Origin: Psammoneis japonica
Taxonomy: Eukaryota
Direction: 5' to 3'
NCBI GenBank assembly: GCA_008632985.1
Contig: QPGO01000276.1
Span: 56,994 to 76,993 of the forward strand
Length of the DNA stretch: 20,000 bases
In this document: positions 1-20,000 of the stretch, in pieces
Layout of the letters: the number at the start of each line of letters is the position of its first letter
Position numbering within the stretch: the stretch's first letter is position 1
Program-made: the position numbers and the translations under genes
Notes under the pieces: generated by a model
Database searches by the model: none
What the model was told of the DNA's origin: nothing
What the model saw: only the letters and a program-made list of their open reading frames with translations

Positions 1-612
1 CGCAACTATACTGTCTTTTTCTTTCTCTTCTTCTTGTTGTAGTTTAATAAAAGCGTCCTCCCACTCGGTAAAGGTGCGAGTGACCACAAACTCTTCAATC
101 TTGAACTCGTCATTGAGTCGAAACCGCGTTTGACCTTCCACCGCCATGGGAGTATTCTTTGGAGCAATGCCACAACTCGTTCCAGTCCATGTTCCGGTTT
201 CATACCAATGCGCCACAACCCAATCGCCTCGTTGACCGCATTCTGGACCGTAATGAAATTTAACGACGCAATCCGGGTGAGCCGTGACAAAATCCATGCA
301 CCGATCCACCAAATCCTGTGCCTTGACAGTGCGTTTGCTATCGTTGATTCCACAAACGTCGCGAATTGTTGCCTCTTGAGCAAAACAATCAAGAATCATT
401 TCTGGATCTTGTTGATTGACTCCCTCAAAGTACTGCTGAACAACAGTCTCCATGGCTGCTTTTGTTTCTTGATCGGAAAGAGTAGTAGAAGAAAAAAGAC
501 TCATTCTGTTGGTGTTTGTGTCACATCGAACTTTATTGAGTCCCACTATGCTAAAGGCGCTTGACCTCGATTAAAGAGACGCCAGTATAATGAGCTTGCT
601 CTTTAGCATCAT
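1..612 (-). CDS. SnoaL-like/NTF2-fold protein, 3'-partial (runs off the window start); putative bipartite plastid presequence interrupted by one in-frame TAA at 573-571; frame open from Met at 504
   Basis: My translation of a minus frame absent from the ORF track (no stop inside the window): MMLKSKLIILASL*SRSSAFSIVG...MSLFSSTTLSDQETKAAMETVVQQYFEGVNQQDPEMILDCFAQEATIRDV...DFVTAHPDCVVKFHYGPECGQRGDWVVAHWYETGTWTGTSCGIAPKNTPMAVEGQTRFRLNDEFKIEEFVVTRTFTEWE. The pattern V..YF...N..D......F...A / GD.V...W...GT..G...GI.P......V.G......D.KI is typical of SnoaL-like proteins. TpA, CpG and Tyr content are normal here. Confidence 0.8.
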
Positions 613-658
613 TGTCACACTACAACTCAAAGAAATAATGACAGCCGTCGACGTGTGT

Positions 659-865
659 TGTCGGAGGGAGTTCCCGAGATTGAATCGGATTAGTCGGGAA
701 TCCCGTAGAAGATCTTAGAGGACGAAGAAGTTCGAAGAACAGCAAGACTCAGAAGACATTTGACAAGATTGAATTTAGACAGAACAGATCAGAAAGATCA
801 TAATTTTAGAAAAGCAAAAGTTTACAGAGAGACAGAATACGTACAGCCCTTGAAGCCCTCGAACA
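659..865 (+). repeat. 5' LTR (207 bp)
   Basis: TGTCGGAGGGAG...CCCTCGAACA; aligns without gaps to 7409-7615 with 15 mismatches. Confidence 0.97.
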
Positions 866-935
866 TACTTCGAAGTATAATAGGCGAAGGCCCAAGAGGC
901 TGGGAGACTAGAGAGACACTTGAGTGTTAAGTAAG

Positions 936-1086
936 ATGGAGATTGCAGGAGAGAAATCGGTGCGCTTACCAAGCTTTGATGGTGAGCATAAGAACTTTCA
1001 GATCTGATGGATGAGGATGCTTGCGCATGCTAGTGTGTGCGGATTTGCGCAGGCAATGAACAAGACAGTTGAAGCAGCGGACTTGC
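936..1086 (+). pseudogene. copia gag N-terminus, interrupted by the nested DNA element
   Basis: MEIAGEKSVRLPSFDGEHKNFQI*WMRMLAHASVCGFAQAMNKTVEAADL has the copia gag LP.FDG..NF..W..R motif; it continues after the insertion at 3727 (PDAETDVVDETADD). Confidence 0.85.
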
Positions 1087-1162
1087 GGCAAAGATTTCAT
1101 GCTCGTGGCTGGTTAACGACAAGCCCATGACCCAATCTCTTTGTCTGACTTCGAGCCAAAGT

Positions 1163-1270
1163 GTTAGTGTAAATCGTTAAGTGTCATTTCCACTTCGACA
1201 CAAAGAAAGCTAAATGGTTAGCGTAAATCGTTAAGTGTCATTTCCACTTCGACACAAAGACAGCTAAATG
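1163..1270 (+). repeat. Subterminal tandem duplication, 2 x 54 bp
   Basis: GTTAGTGTAAATCGTTAAGTGTCATTTCCACTTCGACACAAAGAAAGCTAAATG (1163-1216) is repeated at 1217-1270 with 2 mismatches. Confidence 0.95.
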
Positions 1271-2575
1271 CTTAACGGCAGTGGTCAGATTTCAAAATCT
1301 GAGCAATACAGAAATGTCAATGATGAATTAGGATTTTTGATTGCATCTGCCGTAAATGTCATTACGCCAATTGCACTAATGAATACACAAATGAATTTGT
1401 ATTCCATCCTTTTCCTGAACTTTGATCTATCGGCATTTTCGATACGAGTACGCGATGACAACAATAAGGCATGCTTGTGTGTGTCATGGCCATAAGCTGT
1501 GAGGCGTACCATCACATTTGGATTGAACTCGGGGATCTTGATGTCGAAAGTAGCCATTTGTTTGACATTCGTGATTTTTCATCGCCCACAAACTGGGATT
1601 TCAACTGAGTCGAGTTGATGTTGGACGTGTTTCAAAGCACTGCATTTGATGAAACAATTGAGGGCTCTGGAATTATGGCATTTTATGCCATGGAGACTTA
1701 AAACAGTAAATGGGTTGACAATCAAGCAGTGATCGGGTTTGCCAACATTTCCAAAAATGTGACAACAAAAATTGCATCACTCAACAACCAACAACATCTC
1801 AAGAGATAGAAACAAGAAAAGTGACTCCTCTTTGCACTTGAATTAAAAGAGACAACAATGCACAACAAACATTTGAGAAGGACAAGAAGCTCTTGAATGC
1901 ATGGAACAAGAAGAGAGTCAATGAATCGCTCTTGCTTCGAACCTCATGACCTGTTCTCTCCATGATGGTGGTTGGCTGAAAGTTTGGTGGTGGTTTTTTA
2001 TGTGACTTGCAGCTTGAGGCATGTTGATGCATGAACACATGGCCCATGTGTGGTGTCACCTTTGGAATGTGCCACTTGTGGAGTTTGAGTGGACAACTCT
2101 CTGTGCTCAACCTTTGTCCGCCAAATGCTCCGTCAAAGTCCAGATGCTGCCCCATCCCACCCGACCATTGACACAAAACAGTTCTTGCAAAATGTTGTTG
2201 CCTGTTTCCCTCTTCCTCTGCAGAGCAGCTCTCTTGGTGACAGTGCTGCCCACATACCAGAATGTGCTCAAGAATGCTTTCCATTTTGCCAGCCAAGACA
2301 CCCAACTCGGGGCTGTGTGGGCTCGAATCTCTCTCAAGACAAGCTGACATTTGTGCCTGGCACTGGTGGCAACGCTGAGCCCTCCTTCCTGTTTGACTTC
2401 CCAGGAGTGTGCCCAGACCTCCTGCATGCTGGGTGGCTCAACCACAAGAGTTGCTGTCTTTGTTGGTTTTGTCAGCAGGATGTGCCAAGGCTGCTCTGGC
2501 CATGTGTGCACGCCTGGCTGGCACCACAAGTCCCGGTGCAAGGACAGCTCCGACAGCACTTTCTGCTGTCAGCAA

Positions 2576-2802
2576 AGAGTGTGAGCTGGCTGGACTGCCA
2601 AACCCCACACTTCACAGCTCCTTGGCAGTCACTCCAAATCAAGTGCCAACTTGGGGTCAACTGCACCTGGCTGGCTGCAATGCAAAGACAGCTGTGGCAG
2701 CACTTTGTGACAAAAAAGAGAGTGTGAGCTGGCTGGGCTCCCAACCCCACACTTCACAGCCCCTCAGCACTGGCTCCCAATCAAATGCCAGCTTGGGGCC
2801 AA
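2576..2802 (+). repeat. Diverged internal direct repeat, ~85-bp copies 143 bp apart
   Basis: AGAGTGTGAGCTGGCTGG...AACCCCACACTTCACAGC...AATCAA.TGCCA.CTTGGGG.CAA at 2576-2660 and 2719-2802. Confidence 0.8.
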
Positions 2803-3726
2803 TGGCTGCAAAGCCATTGTTGCAAATCCCTGTGCCTGCTCCCTCACACAGCTGTGCACAGGGTCAACATGTGTGGCCTTTGCAAGATGGGCCCCTGGCT
2901 GGCTGCTGACTCCTCAGCCACGGCTTGCAACAAGCCACCACAACACAGAGCATTGTGGGGTGAGTGCAGCACAGCTTGAACAAGCAAACCATGCTGAGAT
3001 CACCCAGAGTTGGCTGCTGTCCTGGGGCTCCATTCAAAGCTGAGCTGGGCTGCTTGGCTCCTTGGTGTGCAGCACATGCTTGGCATCACATTCTTGTCGC
3101 CAAGCAGCCACATGGCATGTGCCCACCATTTGTGCCTGCAACAGTGACCCCAGCCACAAAGAAGCCAACAAAAAGTTGAACCTGTTTTTGTGGTTGAAGA
3201 GTGAAGAAACAGTGAGCAAAGTTTGGTTCAAGATTTGTTGGCAATGCCAAGTGCTGGGCAACCAAAAAGAGGTGCCAAAAATGGCTGTTCTCACTCATTT
3301 CTCAAGAGGAGCTTGCACTCATGATGCAGGGTCTGAAGCAAGCACCAGTCAAGATGACAGTTTTTTCTCTCTGCTCCACTTAAAACACAGCCTTTGAGTC
3401 AATGTGGTGCTCTTTCAACAACTCACGCACACTGGGAGGAGCAGCTGGAGCCAGGGCAGCTGGCCTGGCAGGGCTTGGATGACACCCAAGCTGGGCTGCT
3501 CAGCCTGGTGGCACACACTCAGCGCCACATTGTTGCCCTCCTGCAGCCCGCAATGTGCCCCACTCTTGGCACCTGCAGCAACCACCCTGGACCAAAAGAA
3601 GCCAGCGCAACTCTGGCCATGGTTGCATGGTCAATTGTGTGTGTGTGTGTGTTCAACGGTTGATTCCCCTCTTTTTTTCTCTTTTCCTTTAACCGGCCAC
3701 GAACATGAAAAAATTGCCGGACTTGC

Positions 3727-5318
3727 CAGATGCTGAAACGGACGTTGTTGATGAAACTGCTGATGACGGAAAGAAGAAGAATGAAGCAAAGAAACGAAAT
3801 GTGCCGTTGCAGCAGCAAATTTCACGATGGCGTTTACTGCTGAAGGTCTGATGGGCATTGTGTGTGCTTCTCAGATGACTGAGAGGCCCGGTGGGCTGGC
3901 ATGGAAAACAGTGAAGGCATTGCACGAGATGCACATGCCGCAGGACCTGATTTCGAAGGTCGAGTTGCATCGCGAATTGAACAAAGTGACATTGAAGGAC
4001 AATGAAGAACCTGGAAAAATGTTTGAACAGTTGAAAGGGATTGAGAACAAGTTCAGTGCGGCATCACACAAGATTCCTGATGATGAGTTGATTGCCATCA
4101 CATTTGAGAAAGCACCCAAAATGTGCAAGTCGGTTGTGACAACTGAACAATGCATCCAAGGCAATGATTTGGAAATGAAACATTTGCAAGAAGCAACGAT
4201 GCAGTTGTGGAGGAACACAAGTGGTGGTTCCGAGCAAGAGAGTGCAAATGAAGTGAGTTTGACAGTGACAGAGTCGAGCATCATGTGTTGCAACTGTGGA
4301 GAGAAAGGGCACAAGGCCCATGAGTGCACCAAGCTGAGGAAACCCAAGAAAGGTGGCAGTGGTGGAGAAAAGAAATTTAAAGGAAAGTGCTTCAGCTGTG
4401 GTGAGACAGGTCACAGGAGCAAGGATTGCTGGATGAATCCTGACAACGCGGACAAGGCTCCAGCATGGTTTAAAGAGAAACAGAAGAAGAGCAATGAGAC
4501 CGGATTGTCAAGTGTGGATGCCGGAGCTAAAGTCGAGCTGTTGCTGACAAGCACGGAGACTGTGGAGTTTCCAGCAACTCTGAAATTGTTGGAGTCGGAA
4601 GAAGTGTGGGTGGCAGATTCAGGATCATCAGTTCATTCTTGTGCAAGCATGAGAGGTGCCAAGAATGTTGAGCGAGCAAGTGCTGATGACAAATTGACCA
4701 TCAGCAACAGTGCAGAGGAAGGAGCAAAGTCTGTTGTGGACTCACCTGGTGCCGCATGCAACAAGAATGGATGTGAGCTTGTGGACGCCACTCTGAAGGA
4801 TGTCAGCATTTTGCAACAAGCAACAAGTTCAACCCATTTGGCATTGCCAAGATGCAGATGCAAGGATGGGCACTTGGAGGTGACAAGAATGTGACATGGA
4901 TTCGCAAGAATGGTGTCGAGATGAAATTCGACATCAAGATGCACACGAATCGAGGTGTGGCATTCGCAATGCACATGAAACGAGGACAAGGCGAGTTGTC
5001 CAACGCAATGACACCAAGGAGGCTCAGCATTGAAAGAGCCCATTGTGAGTTGGGACATCCAAATGAAGACAAGACAAGATGCATCACAAAAATGTTGGGT
5101 TGGGAATTGCTCATGGTGGTTTGGTGCTGTGCGAATCGTGTGTGGTGGGAAAAGCCAAGCAAAAGAATGTGCCACAGGAGAGTGAACACAAACCTGCTCA
5201 GGATGCAGGCAACCAAGCATTTTTGGATGTTGCAAGCATCAAGCAAGTCAAGGATGGTCCCAAGGTCAACTCCAAATGCTGTTGGAGGATTGTGGTTGAT
5301 GAGCGCACGCAGTTGAAC
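3727..5318 (+). pseudogene. copia gag (UBN2-like region, two CCHC zinc knuckles), aspartic protease and integrase N-terminus; frameshifted
   Basis: CCNCGEKGHKAHEC and CFSCGETGHRSKDC knuckles; protease VWVADSGSSVH; integrase HHCC region AHCELGHPNE...CESCVVGKAKQK; first core Asp region AFLDVASIK...WRIVVDERTQL. Confidence 0.93.
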
Positions 5319-5401
5319 CCCATGAACGCCAAGAGGCGATTGGAGAGCTGGCGCACCCTGGAGAAGACATTGCACTGGAAGCAACACCTCAAGAACCCCA
5401 T

Positions 5402-7370
5402 GTGGAAGTCGGGGAGAGCACAGATCAACCAACGGAACATGATGAAAATGAAAATGGTGACAACGAAGAGCCAACGGAGTCTGTTGGCGGGGGAGAGATG
5501 AATGAATCGGGTGATTCTGCCAATTTTGCACCAAATTTTGTGCCAACGACTCGATCTGGAAGAGCCATGAAACCGCCCAATGGACTCATTGCAGAGATTC
5601 AAAATGTCAAATTGACACCCGCTGAACAGAAATTTTGTGCTCACATGAAAGAACTGAATGTGTTGTCATCATTCTGTGAAGATGGTTTTGATCTGATGAT
5701 CATGCATGGACTGGAGCCAAAAGGACCAGAAGCATCTTTGGTCGGAGCCGGAGTCGGAGCCGGGTTCGACAATGCGGTGGAATTGAAAGTCATGAAGCAC
5801 AACCAAGCCATGCAGACTGATGATGTGGAAGAATGGAATGATGCAGTTGAGGAAGAGCATGGCAAATTCCGGAGGTGCAAGGCATGGAAAGAAGTGCCAG
5901 CTGATGAGGTGCCGCACGATGCGAAAATCTTAAGTTCAATGTGGGCCATGAAGAAGAAAGCAGACGGAACCTGTCGTGCAAGGATCAATGCTTGTGGGTT
6001 TGAGCAGATTGATGGAGAGCACTGCAAAGAAAGTGACAAGTCAGCACCAGTGGTGAATGACATCACAGCATGAATCGCGTTGGTTTTGATTGTTGTGGCG
6101 AATTTGTGGGCCGAGCTGCTGGGCATTCAAGGGGCATTTCTGAATGGAAGATTTGCTGAAGGAGAGAAACTTTGTGTGAAAGTTCCACAAGGATTTGAGA
6201 GATTCTATCCAGAAAACGATGCATTGTTGTTGTCAAGGACAATTTGTGGATTGAAACAAGCAGCGATGTCATTCTGGTGCAAAACGCAGGAGGCATTCAA
6301 GAAGATGGAACATGCAAGGAGCCAAGCTGATCCCTGCTTGCAGTTCAAGTGGTTCAAGGAAGGATTGGTCATGTGGCTGACATGGGTTGATGATTGCTTG
6401 GTGGCAGGACCAACCAAACAAGTGAAAGAAGTGAAAGATCAGATGAAAGGTCTGTTCAACTGCACCAAGCTAGGAGAATTGAAAGAATGTGTTGGATGCA
6501 AGGTTGACATTGAAAGAGACAAAGGATGGGCAAAACTTGCACAACCAGTGATGATGCAGAGCCACAAAGACGAGTTTGATTTGGGAGAAGAAACTTGTCC
6601 AAGGACTCCAGCGCCGGGAGGCTCATCACTTGTGAAAGGCAAAGACAAGGAATTAATGGAGCACAAGGATCAAAAGATTCACAGATCTGGAACAGGAAAG
6701 TTGCTGCACATGATGAAATGGACAAGACCCGAGATTCTCAATGCAGTGAGAGAGCCATCAAGGCACATGAGTGGTGCTGTGAGAGCTCACATGGCTGCAA
6801 TGAAGTGGGTGATGCGATGCTGTGTGAGAACACCGAAGAGAGGATTGTTGTTGAAACCAAATGCCAAGTGGAGCAGAGCCAAGGAGCATGAATTTGTCAT
6901 TGTGGGCAAAAGTGATTCAGAGTGTGCAAAAGATCAGGAGACGAGGCACAGTGTGAATGATTGGAGCATGCATCTACACGAGGTGCCCATTTCGATGCGA
7001 AGCAAAATGATGCCCGTTGTTGCTCTGTCAGTTGCAGAAGCAGAGTTGTTCAGTGCCACTTTGTGTGCACAGGATGTGATGCATGCTGTGAGGGCATTGA
7101 ATTCCACGGGATTAAAGTGAAGCCACCTGTGAAGTCATGTGTTGACAACAAGGTTGCCAAGGATTTGATCGACAATTGGAGTGTGGGCGGATGCACGAGA
7201 CACATTGAAGTCAAGCAGCATTTTTTGAGAGAACTGAAGGAAGCTGGCATCATTGATTGTGTTTGGGTCAGTGGAGATGACATGACTTCCGACATTTTTA
7301 CAAAGAATTTGTCTGGCCCTACATTTGAAAAGCGTGCAATGAAATTTGTCGGCAATTGCAAGTGCGTGGA
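5402..7370 (+). pseudogene. copia reverse transcriptase and RNase H; one premature TGA and one frameshift
   Basis: WAMKKKADGTCRARINACGFEQ, GAFLNG, VKVPQGF, RTICGLKQAA, ADPCL, TWVDDCLV, TRPEI; RNase H SDSECAKD, ALSVAEAEL, VDNK, TRHIEVKQHFLRE, SDIFTKNL. Confidence 0.96.
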
Positions 7371-7398
7371 GAGCACAACTGAGACACACAAGATTCCT

Positions 7399-7408
7399 GA
7401 GGGGAGAG
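7399..7408 (+). other. Polypurine tract of the copia element
   Basis: GAGGGGAGAG directly abuts the TG of the 3' LTR. Confidence 0.9.
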
Positions 7409-7615
7409 TGTTGGAGGGAGTTCCCGAGATTGAATCAGATCAGTCAGGAATCCCGCAGAAGATCTTAGAGGATGAAGAAGTTCAAAGAACAGCAAGACTC
7501 AGAAGACATTTGACAAGATTGAATTTGGACAGAACAGATCAGAAAGATCGCAATTTTAGAAAAGCAAAAGTTTGCAGAGAGACAGAATGCATGCAGCCCT
7601 TGAAGCCCTTGAACA
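7409..7615 (+). repeat. 3' LTR (207 bp)
   Basis: TGTTGGAGGGAG...CCCTTGAACA, followed by TSD TGTGT. Confidence 0.97.
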
Positions 7616-7718
7616 TGTGTTTCATGGTTGTTGGTTGTCATTTTGATTATTTTTGCTGCAGACCTTGCAAGCGAAACACGTCATCATCAGTCACGAGTGA
7701 CAGATGTTTGAGCCAGTC

Positions 7719-9007
7719 ATGAGTCCAAAGATCCACCCGACAGCAGGCAGATGGCAATGGCACAGAGCATTTGGTTTGTTGCATTTTTTGAGTTTGTTGC
7801 TGTCACTCTTGCTTGTAAGTTTCAAGTTGCTGTGAGGCTTGTGGTCACTGTGATTGCTGTTGTCTTGCATTGCTGACAAAGAGGGACAGGAGACAGGCAT
7901 TGTAGAAATAGATTCAGTTGCCCGTGATGACCGTGTGGAACCTGATGAAAAGAAGCACGTGACAAAAGTCGTGCTGATGGGTCTTGCTTTTGTCTTGCTG
8001 GGCATGTCTCTTGGATTTGCATCCTTCTACCTCATGTTCCTTGCGCAGTGCGGGGACCTTGTTGAAGAACTGGAGGGACATCACAAGTCGTCTGTGCAAA
8101 GGTTGCAATTTCAATGCAAGCAGTGCGTTTCGGAATCCAAGAATGGCACCGAGTTGGAGGAAATCAAGGGATAATTGGAAGCTCAAACCACCCTAAAGCA
8201 GCAGCACCAGGGTGTCAAGGAAGAGCTCATCAAGCTTTGCAATCAAGACAGCATGTTGAATGAGCAAATTCAAAAGCTTCGAGAGCAACTTCACGAAGCC
8301 CAGAATGACCTGTCGCGGTTCATGGATGAGCACAAAAGGGAAAAAGCGGAACAAATTTCTGAGCAAGCCAAGCAAACTTCTGAGCAAGCCAAGAGAGAAC
8401 AAGACAAGTTGCAGGAAGAAAATCAGTGCCAGCTCCTGCAAATCTCTGAACAAGCCAAGAGCTTGCAGATCTCCAATCCACAGCAAACGAGTCAACTCAA
8501 AAAGCACCCAAGCTTGGTGCTTTGAATTTGGACTTGGAGAAATGTCTCTCAGAGGCTCAGGCAGGCATGGAGCCATTTCAGAAAAAGATTGATGAACAAG
8601 CCCAGGAATTGGGGGAACTTTGGGTGGAGAGGATGCAGTTGCTTGAGCACCAGAGCACGTCAGCTGAAACAGTTGCGAAACTCAAAGAAGATTTAAAGCC
8701 CGAGACACACGAGATCATCAAGTGCACGGAACACTTGCAGGCAATGTTGATGCGAGAAAATGTTTTGCATTGATGCAAGCAATCTGCCAAGGATGCATCT
8801 GCCAGCCTGCCGTGTGTGGATGAACATGATGAATGTGAAGCATGGGTGAGCAAGGGCAAATGCACAGCCAGCCCCACCCACATAAATCGATTCTGTCGCA
8901 AAATGCGTAAAATTTGTCCGCAGAATGACGACGACACTGAAATCAAGTGGATTGATGACAAGGCTGCACCAACTCTTGATGAGAAGTTTGCATCGAACAA
9001 GCAGTGA
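7719..9007 (+). pseudogene. Host-type gene remnant: hydrophobic N-terminus, TM helix, long coiled coil, C-terminal ShKT domain; putative intron 7815-7889
   Basis: ATG at 7719, MSPKIHP...FGLLHFLSLLLSLLL; a 75-bp GTAAGT...GCTGAC...CAG intron joins in frame to ETGIVEIDS; TM VVLMGLAFVLLGMSLGFASFYLMFLA; E/Q/K-rich heptads; CVDEHDECEAWVSKGKCTASPTHINRFCRKMRKIC (8813-8917) fits ShKT with one Cys lost. Stops at 8172 and 8771 and a frameshift near 8480-8520. Confidence 0.7.
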
Positions 9008-10382
9008 GAATCTTGCGAGTGCAAACGTGCCCCATGGCAGCTTAGGATGCCCACGCACATGAACCCGTTGTGCATCTGGCACGGAAAATGCCTGCAGCCC
9101 TACAACCAAAGACACTCACATCACTCTGCGCCACATCCAGCATTTTGCTCTTAGCACTGCAGCTCCCGAAAAGACACTCTCGTCAATCACAAGCATGACT
9201 CATCTTCCAACACAGCATTGCACAATTGCGAGCCTCTTGTGAGCAGGCTTTGAATCATTTCCTCAAAGTTCAATCAAAACACCAATGGAGCTCAAGGTTT
9301 CTTGCGAACGCTGCGCTGTTTCTGGACCCAATTGCCCACATGACGATGGATCTTTTTTTTACATTTCCTTGTTGGAACATGACAATGAGCATTGTCACAC
9401 ACTGGCATGTGTTGAAAGGTGTTCAATCTTTCACAGTTGGCATCCAATCCCCTGTGATGTGCATGACCTGACTCCAAACCCCAGTCAAAGCTACAATTGA
9501 AACGAAATTGGTCAGCTAAAGGTTGCGTCAAGCAGCTGCTAGACCGCGTGTCATGGACGGTCCCCTCCGGATGGGGCCCCGACGCAATTTACAATCAGTG
9601 GCAAGTCCTCAAAAAAGCATGCCATGGCTTCTATCCCATTGCAAGTGCTTTTTGAATCCTCCCCACCTGTCTCTTTGCCGTTTTGCCTGGCAGCAAAATT
9701 GCAATTGTTGTGGAATTAGCCGGCTGAACAGTTTTTCAGCAAAGTTTCAATGAGGCAGCAGAGTGAAATGATTGCTTGCCCGTGGAAACCAGCAGTTGAA
9801 GTTTTGGACAGGAAAACCTTCTCACAGGCTCCAGCAAGCAGCAATGTGCAACAAAAAAGGAGGGGGGACAGGTGGCGTAATCTGTCATCTGCTCTGCCAC
9901 TGAGCTACATTGCAATGGCTGCTGTGGTTGGACTTGAACCAACGATCTGATCCTCAGGAGGGCAAGATTGAATTGAGTTGCTGTTTGCCACCTGTTTCTG
10001 TGGAAGTTGTTGAAACATGTAAAGAGTGTGATGAGCAGATGCTCGAGTGCAATTCAATGTACGTGCTGTACACAGCTGGCGCGATGCAGTCTGGATCGGA
10101 TTTTGAGTCATGGCACGCAGAAAGAGACTCTTCGTGCCCCTGTTTAGATGGAGACATCTGGACGTCCGGCATGTCCCACCATTCGAAAATGACTTTTAGC
10201 TTCTCCTTGTGGGAGGGTGGCACCTCCAATCCAAGATGACCGGAAACACTCCTCAGAACTGTGACCGGCAAATCTCTTGGTTCCATCTCTCACTTTTCCA
10301 GCTTTGTTGGAACAGGAACATTGATCACTGTGACTGGATCATCTCAAAAGCTTGGAAAAGTTGCTCTTTCTCTTTTTTCACC

Positions 10383-12853
10383 ATGTCTGACTACTTTGCT
10401 TCGGGTCTTGATGACTGTGCGTTTGTCAACCTCGTGCATCAGCTCGAATCGGATGTGCTTTTGCCTCACTCGTCACAGTCTCCATCGTTGCCCACTCCTC
10501 AGGCTCGCCCCCTTGGGGCTTTGCTTCAGGGGGTCGCGGGGCTTCAAACCCTGGTGTGAGGGGCTCAAGTGCGGGCAGGGACTCTGGGAGTCACAGTCAT
10601 GGGCCTTCAGACATTGACCGGGCAGAATTGGGAGAGGTCATCTCCATTGAGGATGTTGTGCATCCTCTCTTCCGGGAGGGGCAAAGCACCAATGATCAAG
10701 TGTTGGATCGCTCATTGCATGTTGGTTTCTTTGGGCCGGAGGAAGGGAAGAGCAAGCGTGGTGCTGGGGAGACAGAGGAGGAAGGTGCATCTCCTTCATC
10801 ATCTCATGTTCCGCTTTGTTGCATTGCTTGGCTGGAAGGGACCAATGGCAGCCGTTGCCTTGGTGTCAAGGGAGGCGGCGCTGCTTTCTGTCTGAAGAAG
10901 GCGAGAGAGAGTGCCAGGTCAAACACAAGGGAGACAAGCTGCAACTCCCGTCCGATGGGTTGCTGGCAATTCTCAAAACACTGGACACAGCTTTTTGTCA
11001 ACCGGTTTTGGATGGTGGGTTCATTGCCGGTGACGTTTTGGTCAGTTGGGAGACAAAAACTGACACCTTGTCTGGTTGGCGTAAAAAGTTCTTGGTCGTT
11101 GGGGACAGTGAGGAGGTGATGACAGAGGAGGAGCTGGGAGCCTCTCTCCTTGAGTGCAAAGCGGCAGCTGATTTCAAAATGCCCGGTGGGAAGAAAGGTT
11201 CGAGCCTCCCACCTCCAGGTGATGGGAGAGCATTTGGTGCATTTAGCCCTTGCCGGCCGATGATCACAACAACCCCCACTCAGTTTTTGGCAGCAAACAA
11301 GGGTCCATCTGCCTTGGCCTGAGTTGCACAGTCCGTGGAGGATGGCTCACAGAATTTGGGAGAAGTTGGGGTTGACATGGGAAACCACTCTTGCACACAG
11401 GGCAAGCATTCCAACAGTGCAACGGACCTGCTCAGTTGAAAATTGGATCAGTTGGAAGCAGCCGTTGGGGTTCCTCCTCTTGGGTTTGATCAGGCCATCA
11501 AAGCACCTGCCATCTGGGGGACTTTGGCTAATGTCACGGCTGGGTCTCAGCCTCAGAGTGGAACTGACACAGTGGATGAGATCAAGGAGAAGCTCAGGGC
11601 ATTGGACTTGAAGCTTGTGACCCACTCTAACAAGCTGGTTGCGTCCTTCAGTGCACAACTTCAAACCTTTGAGGGTCAGATGTCAGGATTTGCGGCCAGC
11701 AGCGATTTCAACTCCCTGAAAGAAAATGTGTGTCGTGTGCATCAGCAGTTGGCAGCCAAGGTCCGAAATCTGGAATTGTTGGGGCCCCTGGCTGGGGGGG
11801 TGGCTGCAGGAGTTGGTTTGGGCTCGGTCACGTCCAGTGTGGAAGCTCGCATCGCGCGATTGGACCAGGACTTGAGCAAATTAAAGTCCAAGTCAGACAA
11901 AGCGGCTGTGAAGTTCTCCAGAGTGGGCGTTGCCTTGTGCGGAGAGTGCCAGGCTTGGATGGCAAGGCATTTCCTGTCCAGGGCCTGTGGGTGTCTCACT
12001 GATGCAGTTGTCTCAATGGACAGGATCAAGGGAATTGAGCCAGCCGCCCTGTGTCACTGCTTGGGGCAGTGGGCCAAATGTGAACATTGAGACTGAGGAG
12101 GATGCCCGGACCTTGGCAGGGTTCCAGTGCAGGATGCCTCACTTGCTGGACTCAGGCTCAGTCAAGGCAATGGAGTTGCTGGGGTTGCATCCTTCACACT
12201 TGGACAAGGCACCTGCACACGAGCATTGCAGAAACTTGGGAACTGAGCAATTCATTGAGTCAAAAATTGGGACCGCAGAGATGGGCGTGATGGAGGACAC
12301 AAATCAGCGGGTTGCAGCCGGAACCTTTGAGAGCCAGGTGGTGCGGGACACTCTGTCTAAGTCAGTTGCTTTCATTCGTTCCTTGTGTGCCTTCATCAAT
12401 TTGACCTGCAATTCCTTGACAAGTTTGAGCAAGTTTTCAAAGAAACAAGCATGGTCTTTAGCTTCAAAGCTGGTTTGTTGAGTGTTTGATGACATCCAGA
12501 AGGCGCGTTTGGGGGTGTTCACGACGATCAAGGGGACCGATCCGGATTCTGTCTGCAGCAAGATTTTGTGGACAGTCTTTCGCGCCCATGACATTGTGTC
12601 GGAGCACACGTCAGCCAGTTTTGTGTTGATTGCGTTGGAGCATGTCAAGTTCCTGGTGACAAATTCTGGCTTCAAAGCAGTGACGGATCTCCAATCGACG
12701 GTGAACTTGCTCATGGAAAAGTCCAAGAATGCAAGCTTGGCAGCTAAATTGGCACAGGCCGGGGGTGATTTGGCCCACGTGGAAACTGTTGAGCTTTGAA
12801 ACGAGATTAAAGAAATGGGCAAATGGATTGAGACATTGGAAAACAAGAAATGA
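10383..12853 (+). pseudogene. ORF1 (gag-like) of the YR retrotransposon, fragmented
   Basis: Consecutive + strand fragments from MSDYFASGLDD to ...KWIETLENKK*, including a Cys/His cluster (RCLGVKGGGAAFCLKK..CQVKH) and coiled-coil stretches; assigned by position upstream of RT. Confidence 0.6.
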
Positions 12854-12857
12854 GGGT

Positions 12858-15800
12858 CATGGGGACCGGAGAGCGACGACCTCACAGACCCGCTTGTGAA
12901 CCTGTGTCTGCCGGCAGCCCAGGTGACACAAGGCATGTGGTTTGGGGGGCAAAACCCTTTTCTTTCTGTGGTTCATGTTTGGTTGTTGCTTCTGGTCCCC
13001 CTGTCTGGCTGCTGTCTCTGTGGGTGGTAGAATGGTCAGAATTCTTTTTGGCGACCAACGGTGCGGGAGACACACAGTGGACCCAGTTGATTTTGGAACT
13101 CTTTTGATCGCAAATGGGACCTGCGCTCACCCCTGTCCCCTTGAACAAGGCACCCCATGTGGTGGACAAGGTGGACTTGGCCCTGGTGTCAGGCCTGCCC
13201 CCCTTTTTGGAAGCTTCAGGTTGGTTGATTCAAAACTCCCCTGTGATCATGGTCCCGGTGGGGAGGGGATCCCGGTGGTCTTTAAAAGGTTTGGGCCACT
13301 GTGACAGCCTTGGTGTGTCACACCCTTCTGTGGGGGGTGTTGCGTCATTCCGGATGACCCTGTTTTGACAACGAATCATCCTCCCGATTCTTTTGGATGG
13401 GCTGCACCTGTCCATTGGCCACATTCTAGACCATGAACTGGCAGCCCCTCCGGTGGATCCCCGCTTTCCTGGCACTTCTTACCGGGAGGACGACAAGCTT
13501 CATCCGGGGTCTCTGACCCGACCCATTGTTTGCCCATCCCACAGGTCACAGACAGGGTGGGTCACCCGCACACCATCTCCAGATGAAATGCTTGCAGCTT
13601 GGGACTTTCCCCTTCGACATTGCAGCCCGGTGGTGGTGGAGAAGGTTCGGGGAGGGGAGGGTCTCTTGGCCATCATCCCTTTGAACATTCTGTTGGCACC
13701 TCTGGAGTCATTTGTCCATGGGGTTGGTGCAAAATGAGGGTCTTGTACCTCTGGGGTCCAAGGGGGATCAACGCCAGCCGTCGGGCAATGAGCAACAGCA
13801 ACATGGCTCAAGGGAGTGGGTGGCTGCTTGCCCCACTTGTGGACTGACATCTCTCTCATCACCACCAAGGCTGCAAAAGGGGACAGCATGGCCCCCCCAT
13901 TCTGGCTGTGGGACAAGCAAGTTACGTTGGTGTTTCCAGAATTTGGGGCCACCTTGCCTGCTCTCTGGACTTTGGGATTGCGGCAGTGGCCCTGGCACAC
14001 CACTCGTTCTTTTCTCAGCTGTCTGTGGCACACATGTGGGTTGTCCTGGTCAGACTCTTTGGGGGTTCTCTGCAGGGAACACGGGGATGCCGAGGGGCAT
14101 CGTCAGGGGGGGGGTGTTGCCAACCCCCGCTCCCGCCCTTGTTGATGGACACAACTTCAGGGGTGGAGGTTCTTCTCCAGGTGACGGAGAGTTCCTGGTG
14201 GGGGTGGGACAGCGGCTCCTCACTGCTGTTTTGGCGGTGTCCTGCTCCCGCACAACGCACTGCCATGCATGATGGCATCCCAATCTTCGTTGAGGGACCC
14301 CTGCCGTGTAATTGGAAGAGGCAATGTGTGAGAGGAACCCCTCAGGAAATCCAGCAAATGGCAGACAAGATTCAGAAAGTGTGGACCCAAGGACACATTC
14401 AGCGGGGTCATGTGGTGAGTCTTGCTGATTGCTTCTGGGTCCCCAAGACAGTGCAAATGGAGACCCAGGGTCAAAATTTAGTTGAGGTTGTGGAAGATGT
14501 CCCCGCATGGTCTGCAATGGGACCTCTTTGGGTTTGAATGAGGCGCTGTGGGCCCCCTCCTTTTTCTCACCCACCCCAGCTTCGGTCTTGGGCTGTGTGA
14601 CAGTGGGTGCTTTTTCTGTGGACCTTGACCTAAGTGACATGTTCCTAAATTTTTTCATGGATCCAGCGATTTGCCCATGTGCTGGGGTGGACTTGTCCCC
14701 TCTCACCCTTCATCTCCCAGGAGAATTGACTCCTCCCAGCTTGAAGCGGTGGACGAGACTTTTCATGGGAATGCGACCGAGCCCACATCTTGCTGTGCGG
14801 TGCTGCCATTGGGCCAACGAAGTGGCAAGAGGTGACCCACTGAGAGCCAACAACGCAATGGGTTTCAACAAGGTCATTCTAAACTTGCCAGGTGACCCAA
14901 ATTTCAGCGTGAGTGAGCCGATGGTCATGAAATGGAACACGAAGGCATGATCTCTTGCAGGAGACGTAAAAACCTTTGTTGATGACTTGCGTGGGGTGGG
15001 TTTGGGTGAGGAGGCGGCATGGCAGGTGGGCCACCAAATGGCATCTAGGCTCCAACATTTGGGGCTGCAGAATGTGAGTCGAAAGGTTCGGCCTCCATCG
15101 CAAGCGGAAACGGGGGCCTGGGCTGGCTGCATTTTTTGCATTGCAAATGGTGACGTGACACAGTCAGTGTCTCAAGCCAAATGGGACAAGGCAAAGGGCA
15201 TTGTTGCTGACCTTCTCCAAATGCAAGAGGGCACACCAGACCAGTGCTCACCCTCCTTTGGACACAAGGACTTGGAATGTAAGCGAGGCTTCCTGGTTCA
15301 CTTGGCAATGACCTGCCCCTGGCTTGCCCCGTTTCTTAAGGGTGTGCATCTTACCTTGGACTCCTGGTGGCCAAATCGGAAGAAGGACAGATGGGCCATG
15401 TCAGGAAAGGAGTTCTCTAGTTGGGCACACCATGTTGCTGAGAAAAGGGGGACAGACGTGGTTGATCTCACAGAAAGCTTGTCGGGAAGGAAATCACCTG
15501 GTTCTGTAACGGCAGTGCCTAGACTGCAGTCAGACTTGCAAGTCATTGCTCGAATTCTTGAATCTGATGCTCCCTCTGTTCATTTAATTTGGTCTTCAAA
15601 GATCATGGCAGTCCTCTGTGGGTTTGGAGATGCTTCTGGTGAAGGTCTGGGAACATCAGTGGAAACCAAGGACGGGACCATTTTGCACCGCATTGGGGCA
15701 TGGGGGGAAGATGAGGCTGGAAACTCATCAAATTGGAAATGACTGTCTAACACGGTAGACACCATGGAGGAGATGGCTGAGGCAGGTGACTTGGAGGGAG

Positions 15801-16664
15801 TCAGCCTTTGCTTCTTTGCTGACAATTCGGTTTTGGATGCAGCTAATTACAAAGGCACGTTGTCTAGCCTGATGCTGCTTGAGCAGGTGATTTGCATGAA
15901 GGTGCTCAAGGTGAAGCACGGGTTCATGTTCCATCTTGTCCATGTGTCGGGGAGCCGGATGATTGCCCAAGGTGCTGATGGGGTGTCACGGGGTGTCCTC
16001 TCTGAAGGAGTGATGAGTGGTGTGAAGATGTTGTCCTTTGTTCCCCTCCACCTCAGCCCTGCAGCTCAGCCTCCAAAATTGTTTGATTGGATTTGCTCTT
16101 GGGCTGGAGCTCCGACCCCAGAACTGCTTTTGCCTCTAGATTGGTTCCAGAAGGGCCATGACATCTCTGGATGGGAATGTCCAAAACACAAAGCAATGGA
16201 GATGCCCACATTCCATCCCGGAACATGTTGCCAGGATAAAGTGACAGGATTCCTTCCACATTTCTGCTTGTCCAAGGTTGATGACCCTGGAATGGCAGAA
16301 GCAATCACACAAGGCTGCAGATTTAGTTTTCATGGTCCTGGCAGGAGCGGGTCCCTTCTGGCCAAACGAAATGCATGAACCTCTGCTCATTGGCCTTGCT
16401 TTTCCATTTGTTCCTCACAGGCCCTGGCAGTTGTGGGGTGCCCCTAAAATGCACGCAATGAACTGGGCCCTGTGCTGTGTGTGGGAAAATGACAATGTGG
16501 ATGAAAGGAATCTTTTGTGCCAATTTTGTGCACAGTGCAGGTCTCTGGCCACCTTGTCGGAAGGCATGGTGTCCAGGCTGTTGTGCTTCAAGCAGAAGCG
16601 TGACGTTCCATCTGGGGGGCACGACGTTGCAAGAGGATCCAAACAAGGACAAACTAGCTCCTGA
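12858..16664 (+). pseudogene. pol of the YR retrotransposon: long N-terminal extension, reverse transcriptase, RNase H, C-terminal tail
   Basis: RT motifs FWVPK, MVCNGTSLGLN, DLDLSDMFLNF, WTRLFMGMRPSP, KTFVDDLR (FVDD at 14975-14986), WAG; RNase H GFGDASGEGLG, SSNWK*L, FFADNSV, HLVHVSGSRMIAQGADGVSRG. Confidence 0.9.
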
Positions 16665-16728
16665 TGCAGATGGGGGACACGTGGAGGAGAATGAGAGGCA
16701 TTGAAAGCCATGTGACAAGAACAAATTC

Positions 16729-17961
16729 TTGTGCGCTCGTGTGGGGCACCATCTCATGGTTTTCTTTGAGTGTGATTTCTGTGTCTTCCACAAACTGTGT
16801 CAATGGGAGCCCCACCCTACGTTGCCATGGGATGAAGTGGCTTTAGCGTGCATCCATCGGGTGATCTTGGATGCCTTCTGGAGCCGAGAGACAGCAAGGA
16901 GAGGGCTTGCCCTCTCTGAGCACCTCGGGCTCTCAGGACCTCATCTGGAGCCAGGACCACTCCCAGCACATGACCATTGCGGGTGCAAGGTGGCCATGCA
17001 GATTGTTTTGGGATCAACCTCCCCTGGGCGGCATCCCACCTCTTGCACACAGTTCAACACTGTTCGGAAGTTACGGACAGCTTGCACCAACCAGGTTCAA
17101 GCCGCAGCTCAAGCCAATTCTTGCCCCCTGGCTTTAGCTGATTTAGAAAGAAAGCAGCATCTGCAGATGTGCAAGGATCCCTGCACATTGTTGTGGTTCC
17201 AACACTTTGTGACAGGATGCAAGAGACGCATGGGACAAGATTGGTGACCTGACCGAGCTGTCTTGGCAGAGACAATGCAGCACCTCCTCCCTTGAGTGAA
17301 GGAGAGAGATTTCAACTCGGAAAGTGACATGGAGCAGTTCACCTGTCTGGTGGCAGGACTGTGTTTTGTGGCGAGCTTTGTGCTTTTGTTGAGAGGTTCC
17401 GAGTGATTGATGATTGACTTGAATGCCATGGCGAGATGCCTCCCGAGGAACTCCTTGCATGTGATGGCACCTTTGTTGGAATGGGTCAAGGGAGAGCATG
17501 GAAAGCGGTGACACTTGTTGCCATGTGTTGATGTTGCTTTGTCAGGGATCAATGTCCATCAATGGGTGGAACAGGCAGTGTCCATCCACGCAGGTTGAGG
17601 GTGGTCTCGGGGCCTGGCAATCTCTGATGCAGCAGCTGTTGTGCTTTCATCTCATGAGCTGAACTCCCTTTTGCACACTTGCTTGGGAGACATTTGTGAT
17701 GAACATCCTGCTCCATTCACTGCAGACATCGGTTCCCATGCGGACATCCAAGAAAAACATGACGTCAGCCGATCTTTTTGCAGAGGATCAGACTCTTGGG
17801 CTGTGGCCCAAAAGGTTTCACCAGATGACATTGATGTGGTGAACCACTGGAAGAAGAAGGAGGGGGCGGGGGGAGTGAGGCCCACCAACAAGATGCAACA
17901 GCATTGTGCTGACATCTCTCTTCTTCTCCCATCACTCTTACGCTGTGCCAAGGCCATGTGA
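16729..17961 (+). pseudogene. Tyrosine recombinase of the YR retrotransposon
   Basis: Catalytic-order motifs LLRGSE (R), VKGE (K), SRSFCRG (HxxR-equivalent), VNHW (W) and MQQHCAD (catalytic Tyr position, now Cys at 17905-17907); several TGA stops. Confidence 0.82.
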
Positions 17962-18204
17962 CTTGAGTCTGTCCCTGACTTTGGACAGCATTGGAAGGTG
18001 ACGAATTTCTTCTCACTTGTGAGGTGGCCACTGCCTGGGAGTCTCATCAGGGGGGAACATGTGCTCGGCTTGGCCCAGTTTGACCTGGGGAGTCGCTGGA
18101 CCAAGCACTGGACAAGATCAGCAGAGCACTTTCATTCGGTGACCTGTGCTCCGATGTGGGGGAACCGGGTCTGGCATTTCTTCTACAATTTGGGGGGAGA
18201 AAAA

Positions 18205-20000
18205 ATGTTCAAGCCTGAGATGAAGTTGCACCCTTCATCATGCTGAGCAGCAACATTTGCCATGCAACACAAAAAGATGTCAAGGAGAAAATCATCTGCC
18301 ACACACAGAAGGAGTGTGAGCAAGGCATGCATCTGGCAAGATCTCCAGAGGACATGAAATGCAAGGACTGTAGTTCAGAGAACCCCCGTCACAAGCATCA
18401 ATGGTGGAACCTGACATCACCATTGTAGACTGCCAAGAGAAGGTGCAGACAAAAGAGCAAGAAAACAAAGAGCTGAAATGTGAGCACAAAACAGAGCTGA
18501 GTGACTGCTGCAGAAAAGTGGCACAGCTCAAAGTCAAGAAAACAAGATGACAATGATTGCCAAGATCTTAGATGATTCCTGCACCAAGTTGATGAAGCAG
18601 AGAATGCAAGGCAGTCCCACCAGTTGTCCCAGCACAAGGGATGATCCAATCAAGTTGTTGAAACTGATCCAATCTGTTGTGTTTGACTCATGAGAGGTCA
18701 ACATCCATTCTGTGCATGTGCCAATGCCATGAAGAACATCTCAGATGTGAGGCAACAAAAGAACACAACAAAAGAACAAATCACCAAATGACCACCTGCT
18801 CATGTTCAAAACCAGCAAGATGTTGCAAGCAAAGGACTGGGAGACAGGATGCTGGATGGATCCATCTCCAATGCCAAAGAATGTCAAGACAGAGATCATG
18901 CAGCACTGCGCAGAACAGCACTCAAGGGGTCAGCAATCAAGACATGGATGACCTGCCTTCTCATGGCAAACAGCACCAACTGTCATTGCAAGAGTTTGAA
19001 GAAGAGCTTTGTGAGAGTTTGGGTCCAGGCAAAAACACCCACCCGAAGTCTCCAGACAAGGCAATGGATGCATTGTTGAACCACCTGGAAGACAGTGATC
19101 CTCAAAATTGACACAAGAGCAAGAAGAGTGGCAAACAGAAAGACCACAAGGGTGGCAATGGAAACAGTGAGAACAACAACAATCAGTCTGACAATGCAAA
19201 GGACCAGAGCCATGCCCAGAAGAGCAGCAACTGTGAAGTGGCAGTGTGCTGCTCAAGTCCCCAGGCTGCAAACACTGAAGGATGTCATGCACAGCAACTG
19301 GCTCAGGAGAGCAAGAACAAAACCAGACACTGGGGGACAGAGTCATGTGCAGACTCGAGTTGGCAATGACAACCGCTCATTGGTGAACAGTGACAACATG
19401 AGTGCCCACACCACCAGATCTGACCAATCAACCTGCTCTGGCCAAAGCAAAAGTGCTGCATGGCATGGGTTGCAAGCAGCAAACAAGAGACCAGAGACAA
19501 GTGCAAGCCAAACCAACAAAGGCATCAAGAGATGTGAGATCACCTTCAACAATGGCTCTGCCCTCAGCATGGCAGCAAGCCCAAGATTGATGCACAACAT
19601 GCAACCAGCCAAGATCAAGATTGACCTGTCCACAAGTGCAGGAGAGGACACCCTGGACAAGGACTGCACACCATGCCCCAATGGGGAGGGGTGCAAAGCT
19701 TGGAAAAGAGAACAGGACAGCAAACATCCTCAGCCTGCCAGAGCAATGGACAAGTTCAGGTTGCTGGACAAAAGAAGACTGGCAAGCAAGTCATGGTGTT
19801 CAGAGTTGATGACATTGGACCACATGCACTCCTCACACCAAGCCAGCAATTCTTGGACCACACAAAAGATCTCCAAGAAAGTGAGTTGTGTGTGAGCATG
19901 CTGTCAAAGAAAATGAAAAAGAGCAACAAGAAGCACAGGAATGCACCCGGAGCTGTGGCTCCAATGGTGGAACAGAGCTCCAAATGCTTCGCTGAGAGAG
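18205..20000 (+). mobile_element. Second, strongly decayed LTR retrotransposon (diatom copia/CoDi-type) gag-protease, continuing beyond the window
   Basis: Gag-like KPEMKLHP, HATQKDVKEKII..QKECEQGMHLARS.EDM and LCESLGPGKNTHPKSPDKAMDALLNH; protease-like ITFNNGSALSMAASPRLMHNM...LSTSAG (recalled family pattern LDNGST.S...P.LV.NI...TNAG). No LTR identified. Confidence 0.65.

Follow-up and report, generated by a model that had tools for sequence, protein, structure and literature searches.

We analyzed a 20,000-nt window of the genome of Psammoneis japonica (contig QPGO01000276.1, positions 56,994–76,993), which holds a Ty1/copia retrotransposon, a DNA transposon with terminal inverted repeats (TIRs) inserted into it, and a second retroelement, next to a host gene. 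An initial annotation, made from the sequence alone, had noticed that tyrosines conserved in the copia reverse transcriptase (RT) and RNase H are cysteine or histidine here, and had proposed that an ancestral TA became TG or CA on both strands. We find that this is one part of a larger effect: the whole tract that carries these elements was probably hypermutated at the DNA level after they had inserted, TpA being converted to TpG or CpA, and CpG likewise to TpG or CpA, with the adjacent host gene spared. The evidence is that of one window of one genome; positions below count from the first letter of the window.

The Two Long Terminal Repeats of the Copia Element Differ at TpA and CpG

The copia element was followed from one target-site duplication to the other, with these parts:

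654–658, plus strand: left target-site duplication TGTGT, identical to the five bases at 7616–7620.
659–865, plus strand: 5′ long terminal repeat (LTR), TG...CA, 207 bp, a direct repeat with 7409–7615; unmutated, 9 TA and 9 CG kept.
936–1085, plus strand: N-terminal part of gag, translated from the ATG at 936 and interrupted by the DNA transposon.
3718–4894, plus strand: rest of gag with its CCHC zinc knuckle (zf-CCHC, E = 1.7e-7) and the protease region, hypermutated.
4950–5500, plus strand: probable integrase remnants, frameshifted, catalytic core mostly missing, recognized by eye in the translations.
5750–7370, plus strand: RT/RNase H with an in-frame TGA at 6071–6073 and a frameshift near 7100 (RVT_2; alignment to 60 relatives).
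7399–7408, plus strand: polypurine tract GAGGGGAGAG, read from the sequence, abutting the 3′ LTR.
7409–7615, plus strand: 3′ LTR, mutated copy (ungapped comparison with 659–865).
7616–7620, plus strand: right target-site duplication TGTGT, matching 654–658.

Because the LTRs at 659–865 and 7409–7615 are both flanked by TGTGT, a word found at 0.25% of tract positions, they delimit one copia insertion, 659–7615. It has the hallmarks of Ty1/copia, namely an RVT_2 RT, a CCHC gag, TG...CA LTRs, a 5-bp target-site duplication and a polypurine tract. The RT frame, 5402–7117, matched RVT_2 (PF07727) with E = 3.9e-15 over 6074–7117 (56.6 bits, compared with a cut-off of 31.6) and E = 0.0033 over 5402–6070, and the RNase H tail continues in another frame past the frameshift near 7100. 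The gag remainder gave a weak match to Retrotran_gag_2 (E = 0.0098), and its translation contains a DSG motif. The integrase-like stretch, located before the RT, shows an HxxxxH...CxxC-like pattern followed by IVVDERTQL and has no Pfam match. The element is thus also degraded in other ways, by frameshifts and the integrase deletion, and it may have been a deletion derivative before hypermutation. Without the inserted transposon it would measure about 4.3 kb.

The LTRs of one insertion are identical at integration, owing to the mechanism of LTR synthesis. Here they differ at 15 of 207 positions: four TA>TG, three TA>CA, three CG>TG, four CG>CA, and one other, itself an A>G beside a mutated TA. 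The TA or CG state is always that of the 5′ LTR, and the changes are derived in the 3′ copy, where seven of nine TA sites and seven of nine CG sites have changed, compared with one of the 171 other bases; the per-site rate of change at TA and CG was therefore roughly 100 times that of the background. TA-type changes, TA>TG (4) and TA>CA (3), make up seven of the eight non-CpG differences. Since the LTRs were identical at insertion and now differ, the change took place in DNA, after integration.

This timing bears on another possible source of A>G changes, A-to-I editing of the element's transcript by an ADAR- or ADAT-like enzyme, fixed by reverse transcription. A>G with a 5′ U is a known preference of RNA adenosine deaminases (see also bioRxiv 10.64898/2026.01.13.699255), but such editing precedes integration, after which the two LTRs of this element diverged; both strands are equally affected, the TIR DNA transposon and the DNA between elements share the signature, and the element's own 5′ LTR and gag start were spared. 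We consider an RNA-level origin highly improbable; the earlier argument against editing of a single RNA intermediate holds, on the LTR divergence and on the signature in the DNA transposon and inter-element DNA.

TpA and CpG Are Depleted over at Least 18 kb

Dinucleotide observed/expected ratios (o/e) were profiled in 500-nt segments, of which 36 lie from position 2001 on. The profile separates two regions:

1–570, minus strand: host gene fragment, SnoaL-like, unmutated flank (Pfam SnoaL_2, E = 3.1e-9; SnoaL, E = 2.6e-8).
2000–20000, unstranded: saturated hypermutated tract, continuing past the window end (dinucleotide counts).

Over the tract (~2000–20000), TA was observed 94 times, compared with 1091 expected (o/e 0.086, a 12-fold depletion), and CG 400 times, compared with 1143 (o/e 0.35). 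TG (o/e 1.65) and CA (o/e 1.61) were enriched to a nearly equal degree, which bears out the proposal that both strands were affected. AA, AT, and TT were unremarkable, and the GC content was 0.45–0.57. TA o/e was at most 0.27 in all 36 segments; some single segments were uneven in their products (e.g., 10501–11000, with TG at 1.15 and CA at 1.76). The segments within 1–1500 had ordinary composition (TA o/e 0.38–0.68, CG o/e 0.90–1.06); the first ~1100 bases comprise the host gene and what lies upstream of it. In the RT/RNase H stretch 5880–7300, only seven TA were counted in all (o/e 0.07), with TG at 1.77 and CA at 1.80. The copia element, the TIR DNA transposon, the second retroelement, and unannotated DNA all carry the signature.

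Reaching across at least 18 kb and several elements, the effect is not restricted to RT/RNase H or to tyrosine, so the earlier reading is supported but too narrow. It also missed an equally strong CG>TG/CA part, which appears as Arg>Cys/His/Trp/stop and includes the TGA at 6071–6073.

For comparison, 79 related copia loci were fetched from metagenomes with two peptide patterns, one of which contains Tyr and so biases the scan against other hypermutated copies; the minimum TA o/e among them was 0.41. Five of these related elements from other hosts (L020, L026, L028, L030, and L034) had CG o/e of 0.15–0.19 with TA o/e of 0.57–0.70. CpG decay thus occurs without TpA loss, and the two components are separable; CpG decay alone is common, and TpA loss is the unusual part. 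A native codon or dinucleotide usage of the element family is exceedingly improbable as the cause: relatives have TA o/e of at least 0.41 and Tyr at the affected columns, and non-coding LTR sequence changed in the same way.

Ultraviolet TA photoproducts, O4-alkylthymine, and GC-biased gene conversion were set aside, since AA, AT, and TT show no depletion and the effect is confined to a region.

Tyrosine Loss Is a By-Product of the Dinucleotide Change

A read-through translation of 5750–7117 was used as the RT query and gave 245 relatives with E ≤ 0.001, of which the best was 55% identical; the first 60 among the 120 relatives listed were aligned. Those listed are metagenome proteins without organism names, at most 55% identical to the query. 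Protein clusters of five NCBI-sourced ones pointed to no host; a single cluster member carried the label 'uncultured Marinobacter', evidently through a binning error. A column was called a conserved Tyr column when Tyr was present in at least 50% of the 60 aligned relatives.

At the 12 columns so defined, the window has one Tyr, six Cys, three His, one Phe, and one Gln; the claim that conserved copia tyrosines had turned into Cys or His was borne out. Tyr makes up 0.2% of the query, compared with a mean of 3.6% in relatives, and the shares of Cys (3.7% versus 1.9%) and His (3.5% versus 2.0%) are raised. Tyr was retained in 1 of 12 columns, compared with 222 of 306 for other conserved residues (Fisher p = 1e-5); the loss thus singles out Tyr.

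Of the six motifs quoted in the initial annotation, five fall on columns that are Tyr in 45–59 of the 60 relatives: KLCVKV (56), TICGLK with TGT at 6245–6247 (59), KECVGC (59), IHRSGT (52), and SDSECA (45). Cys or His occurs at those five columns in at most one relative of 60. The sixth, GTCRAR, lies on a variable column (F 21, Y 18, and L 9 of 60) and does not count as a conserved Tyr column. The single Tyr said to remain in the stretch, that of ERFYP (6206), is indeed the sole Tyr in the 456-residue RT/RNase H frame, and also the sole Tyr among the 1163 codons of 3827–7315. The in-frame TGA at 6071–6073 sits in a column that is Arg in relatives.

Two relatives from other assemblies resemble the window. 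Of 10 conserved columns in P0080 (JGI metagenome, contig of 10,326 nt), one holds Tyr, five Cys, and two His; of 12 in P0086 (Logan assembly), none holds Tyr, six hold Cys, and three His. Their Tyr contents are 0.55% and 0%, respectively. Being only 52% and 44% identical to the window pol, they are different elements, and their near lack of Tyr means that the footprint exists beyond this window. Nor are P0080 and P0086 the intact, active relatives with Cys or His that would have spoken against the earlier proposal, being themselves Tyr-depleted throughout.

The second retroelement is unrelated to the first:

14486–16375, plus strand: pol-like frame of a second retroelement, 630 codons (209 relatives with E ≤ 0.001).

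All of its relatives that carry names come from diatoms (Fragilaria, Cylindrotheca, Seminavis, and Cyclotella; hypothetical proteins). The frame itself had no Pfam match, and one of five full-length relatives scanned matched RVT_1, weakly (E = 2e-4) and short of the curated cut-off. None of its 10 conserved Tyr columns (60 relatives) is kept, the window having His in five, Cys in three, Phe in one, and Thr in one, and at 9 of its 30 conserved Arg columns Cys, His, Trp, or Gln has replaced Arg.

Reverting TG/CA alone to TA/CG accounts for 34 of 95 conserved-column replacements in copia and, in the second element, for 34 of 147. The control, with mirrored context, accounts for 14 of 95 and 14 of 147, figures that overstate chance because TGT codons fit both rules and make the control impure. 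Replacements accounted for by TA sites are Y>C/H, T>A, M>V, and V>A; those accounted for by CG sites are R>C/H/W/stop, A>V, and T>M. Over both elements, Y>C, a coding-strand A>G, was found nine times and Y>H, an opposite-strand A>G, eight times. The direction proposed earlier, from TA to TG or CA, agrees with the Tyr of relatives and with the 5′ LTR, which has TA where the 3′ LTR has TG or CA. We conclude that Tyr loss is a by-product of the tract-wide dinucleotide change.

Surviving TpA Sites Are Poor in TAT

As a reference for sequence context we used 6888 TA sites in 35 related, unmutated loci, counting both strands. At the 94 surviving TAs of the tract (188 contexts), the 3′ base is T in 4% (8/188), C in 21%, G in 34%, and A in 41%; at the reference sites it is T in 30%, C in 24%, G in 19%, and A in 26% (chi-square p = 3e-16). 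With R for purine and Y for pyrimidine, YTAR makes up 53% of survivors versus 21% of the reference, and RTAY 4% versus 29%. Both TAs that survive in the mutated LTR are TTAG, i.e., TAR on both strands. The scarcity of TAT among survivors indicates that TAT is the preferred target, followed by TAC, with TAA and TAG changed most slowly.

The products were also considered. A purine precedes six of the eight Y>H changes and a pyrimidine six of the nine Y>C changes, which is the predicted direction in too small a sample. The ratio (YTGY + RCAR)/(YCAY + RTGR) is 1.28 in the tract versus 1.46 in the flank, a comparison confounded by native and CpG-derived TG and CA.

The Boundary Lies within a High-Copy DNA Transposon

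Between the start of gag and its remainder lies the DNA transposon:

1086–3717, plus strand: non-autonomous DNA transposon, 2632 bp, with TIRs of ~29 bp (target-site duplication and TIRs read from the sequence).

Its 9-bp target duplication, CGGACTTGC, is present at 1077–1085 and 3718–3726 as an exact match. TIRs of ~29 bp with a 9-bp target duplication are typical of Mutator-like elements, and the element at 1086–3717 looks Mutator-like. None of its three open reading frames (ORFs) was matched in Pfam. A contig of another copia copy joins 1074 straight to 3718, without the transposon, which confirms the insertion in gag. Word depth over the transposon is 3300–7200, compared with 25–39 in single-copy parts; it is a very high-copy element. 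It has a 54-bp tandem duplication at 1163–1274, and several contigs link 3718 back to 1090 with 5–9 extra letters, suggesting that copies form head-to-tail arrays or circles.

Composition passes from normal to saturated over 1–3 kb: TA was counted 23 times in 1086–1510, 8 times in 1511–2000, and 3 times in 2001–3717. Relative to the majority of TIR-element copies, the window copy has TA>TG/CA at 1129, 1253, 1279, 1358, and 1479, and CG>CA at 1511 and 1644, so that signature mutation is present at a low level already within the zone of normal composition. On the normal side, the SnoaL-like protein has its best named relative in Phaeodactylum tricornutum (72% identity), and all organism-named matches among the 120 listed are diatoms.

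The 5′ LTR and the start of gag are spared and the remainder of the same repeated element is saturated, which argues that the limit is not set by homology, as it is in the repeat-induced point mutation (RIP) of fungi. The limit looks positional and may be that of a chromatin domain whose end is close to the neighboring gene's promoter. Because the effect stops within 1–3 kb of a presumably active host gene and splits one retrotransposon, targeting by chromatin domain would fit better than targeting by homology.

Contigs and Other Copies Reproduce the Signature

Contigs built from k-mers of one public sequencing run were compared with the window, and agreed with the tract over pieces of 969, 871, 1937, 4143, 3907, and 919 nt with 0 differences. 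In that run, 489 of 628 variant places between other copies (placed at ≥85% identity) and the window are transitions. Adjacent TG<>CA doublets between the window and other copies, at 2464/5, 5986/7, and 6023/4, are what one would see had each copy resolved a common ancestral TA or CG on its own.

These data bear on whether the signature could be an artefact of sequencing, base calling, or assembly, produced by misread modified bases in heterochromatin, such as 5-methylcytosine at CpG and an altered T or A at TpA, or by the chimeric joining of a mutated locus to an unmutated one. The run has no recorded library type and may be the source of the assembly itself. The boundary falls within a repeat whose depth is at least 100-fold, where mis-joins are likely, and at position 82, in the SnoaL-like gene, all covering run contigs read A (TA) where the window has G (TG). 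This signature-type difference may reflect allelic or strain variation or a mistake in the assembly. However, the k-mer contigs reproduced the pieces of 871–4143 nt at a depth of 25–39, which noisy long reads would not have allowed. The TGTGT and CGGACTTGC duplications both span the boundary with exact matches, which argues against a simple mis-join. Other genomic copies show alternative TG/CA resolutions; P0080 and P0086, from other assemblies, are Tyr-less with Cys or His at the same columns; and even a join between duplicates of the same composite would alter neither the direction nor the signature. We regard an artefact as very unlikely.

Proposed Mechanism and Slow Decay as an Alternative

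Post-insertion hypermutation would be a DNA-level process acting on the tract from about 1100–2000 to beyond 20000 and not on the adjacent host gene. It would convert TpA to TpG or CpA by an A>G transition on either strand and, in the same tract, CpG to TpG or CpA. Tyr codons would be lost as a consequence (TAY to TGY, Cys, or CAY, His), along with the Arg>Cys/His/Trp/stop replacements. The most likely chemistry for the TpA part is enzymatic deamination of adenine to hypoxanthine in DNA, by a putative deaminase that, judging from the survivors, would depend on a T on the 5′ side and favor one on the 3′ side (TAT >> TAC > TAA, TAG). The CpG part is most simply explained by deamination of 5-methylcytosine in silenced, methylated repeats. 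Diatom transposable elements are methylated, and loss of DNMT5a de-represses them (PMC9998398).

The same composition could also arise from two slow decays in old, silent, methylated heterochromatin, namely 5-methylcytosine deamination and a lineage-specific TpA bias, with genic DNA kept clean; the clean DNA near the gene would then be transcribed DNA maintained by repair or selection. Several observations weigh against hypermutation and, in part, for this alternative. The spectrum is not one of A>G/T>C alone, 7 of 15 LTR differences being CG>TG/CA and the tract CG o/e 0.35. TA and CG depletion are weakly correlated along the 36 tract segments (rho 0.31, p 0.065), and the loci with CpG decay and no TpA loss show that the components can part. 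The copia element is also degraded by frameshifts and an integrase deletion, and a bias acting for long on silent DNA could be at work in the one window examined. The left boundary falls inside a very high-copy transposon. For 2001–3717, none of the best-supported variants displayed (40 of 758 variant rows) gives back a TA, so the lack of TA inside the TIR element may be shared by the family and older than its amplification; the gradient over 1100–3700 and the exact boundary are uncertain to that extent, as the interior was perhaps mutated before amplification. Finally, the matching run may be the assembly's own source, in which case its agreement is not independent of a systematic read artefact.

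Slow decay is hard to reconcile with the LTR pair, in which 14 signature changes stand against 1 change in 171 non-signature bases, a difference of about 100-fold, and with the switch from normal to saturated composition within 1–3 kb. We therefore judge it unlikely and consider post-insertion hypermutation the probable explanation.

Comparison with Known Systems

To our knowledge, DNA-level A>G hypermutation of invading DNA had not been described before a preprint of 2026. In that work, on mutation-accumulation lines of Bigelowiella natans, two integrated viral regions mutated ~1000-fold faster than the remaining genome, and 230 of 231 de novo mutations in them were A>G or T>C, all at TpA (210/211 and 20/20 in the individual regions). 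The B. natans genome also contains 124 clusters in which TpA is depleted and CpA+TpG enriched, and among its coding sequences those depleted of TpA show an excess of RT and DDE domains. Mettrop et al. propose an ADAT2-like DNA adenine deaminase, citing reports that ADAT2 homologues deaminate DNA (bioRxiv 10.64898/2026.01.13.699255).

Target and products are the same as here, TpA to TpG and CpA on both strands, and the effect is confined, as here, to tracts of foreign or mobile DNA adjoining normal host DNA. The tract of our window (TA o/e 0.086, TG/CA ~1.63) lies inside the B. natans cluster cut-offs (Rho_TA ≤ 0.43, TG/CA ≥ 1.52), and the RT/DDE enrichment parallels the transposon targets seen here. 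By protein similarity, the host here is diatom-like (a stramenopile), whereas B. natans is a chlorarachniophyte (a rhizarian). The targets are copia, a TIR transposon, and another retroelement rather than inserts of nucleocytoplasmic large DNA viruses (NCLDVs) and virophages, and the depletion is near saturation, compared with a TA o/e of 0.45 in the B. natans NCLDV region. A strong CpG>TpG/CpA component, absent from the reported B. natans spectrum, accompanies it, so that half of the signal is outside that precedent. The 3′-neighbor bias, with TAT most susceptible, is unmentioned in the accessible B. natans text, in which term searches also found no mention of CpG, LTR elements, flanking context, or diatoms. 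Judged from that text, the TpA component is the same kind of process as in B. natans, in a different lineage, on transposons, and near saturation. Our literature searches found the TpA>TpG/CpA signature described for B. natans alone (bioRxiv 10.64898/2026.01.13.699255) and, judged by titles and the openings of abstracts, no report of it in diatoms.

RIP in Neurospora and other fungi is likewise a DNA-level, transition-only, dinucleotide-specific inactivation of repeats that riddles transposon genes with missense and nonsense changes, as seen here. However, RIP is C>T mainly at CpA and yields TpA and AT-rich DNA, whereas here A>G removes TpA and CpA is gained; and RIP is bounded by homology between duplicates, whereas the limit here looks positional. 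The case made earlier against ordinary RIP stands for the first of these reasons. Fungal-type RIP has a next to negligible probability as the source of the tract, even though repeats are its target and diatoms encode DNMT4 enzymes, grouped with fungal RID, that could bear on the CpG part (PMC9998398).

Methylation-driven CpG decay of silenced transposons loses CpG and gains TpG and CpA, as here (7/9 LTR CpGs), but leaves the other half of the changes, and all of the Tyr loss, unexplained. ADAR hyperediting and ADAT2/3 (TadA-type) deamination turn A into I, read as A>G, with a preference for 5′ U or T, as here, but their established roles are those of RNA enzymes and the change here is in DNA. 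In the natural tRNA substrate of ADAT2/3, U33 precedes A34. The known 3′ preference is G for ADAR and C for TadA, and the 3′-T preference found here differs from both.

A diatom genome defence that deaminates DNA adenine at TpA, with TAT preferred, targeted by chromatin domain and acting alongside CpG-methylation decay to the point where almost all TA and the majority of CG have been removed, is an attractive but tentative proposal, somewhat more doubtful than not. The same footprint on diatom-like transposons would extend the process to a second major lineage, one that is ecologically dominant and for which genetic tools exist. It suggests an analogue of RIP or APOBEC editing that acts on adenine, perhaps widespread in protists of the SAR group (stramenopiles, alveolates, and rhizarians); if the proposal holds, the presence in a stramenopile and a rhizarian would suggest an old, SAR-wide DNA adenine editing, a counterpart to RIP in fungi. 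Transposons that are non-autonomous and depend on nothing but their termini could then survive and amplify later, as the TA-free TIR interior hints. The TAT preference, the domain-like boundary beside a presumably expressed gene, and the co-occurring CpG decay are testable specifics.

Open Reading Frames and Other Observations in the Tract

With only 94 TA left in 18 kb, TAA and TAG triplets are nearly absent. The 20-kb window contains 105 ORFs of at least 80 amino acids and 42 stop-to-stop frames of at least 140 amino acids, most of them surely spurious, and none of the 21 stop-to-stop ORFs of the tract outside copia that were searched matched Pfam. Such tracts would show long spurious ORFs in six frames, leading gene callers to over-predict, while their degraded proteins slip past domain models. 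The second retroelement, at 14486–16375 and about 10400–18000, belongs to a family without a Pfam model.

The most extreme depletion was found in 18000–20000 (CG o/e 0.04–0.23, TA o/e 0–0.10), where the AT skew is 0.25–0.39 (A over T). Contigs there have many joints, between 18365 and 19772, that skip parts of the window, which suggests a variable internal repeat, and depth goes up to 160–580.

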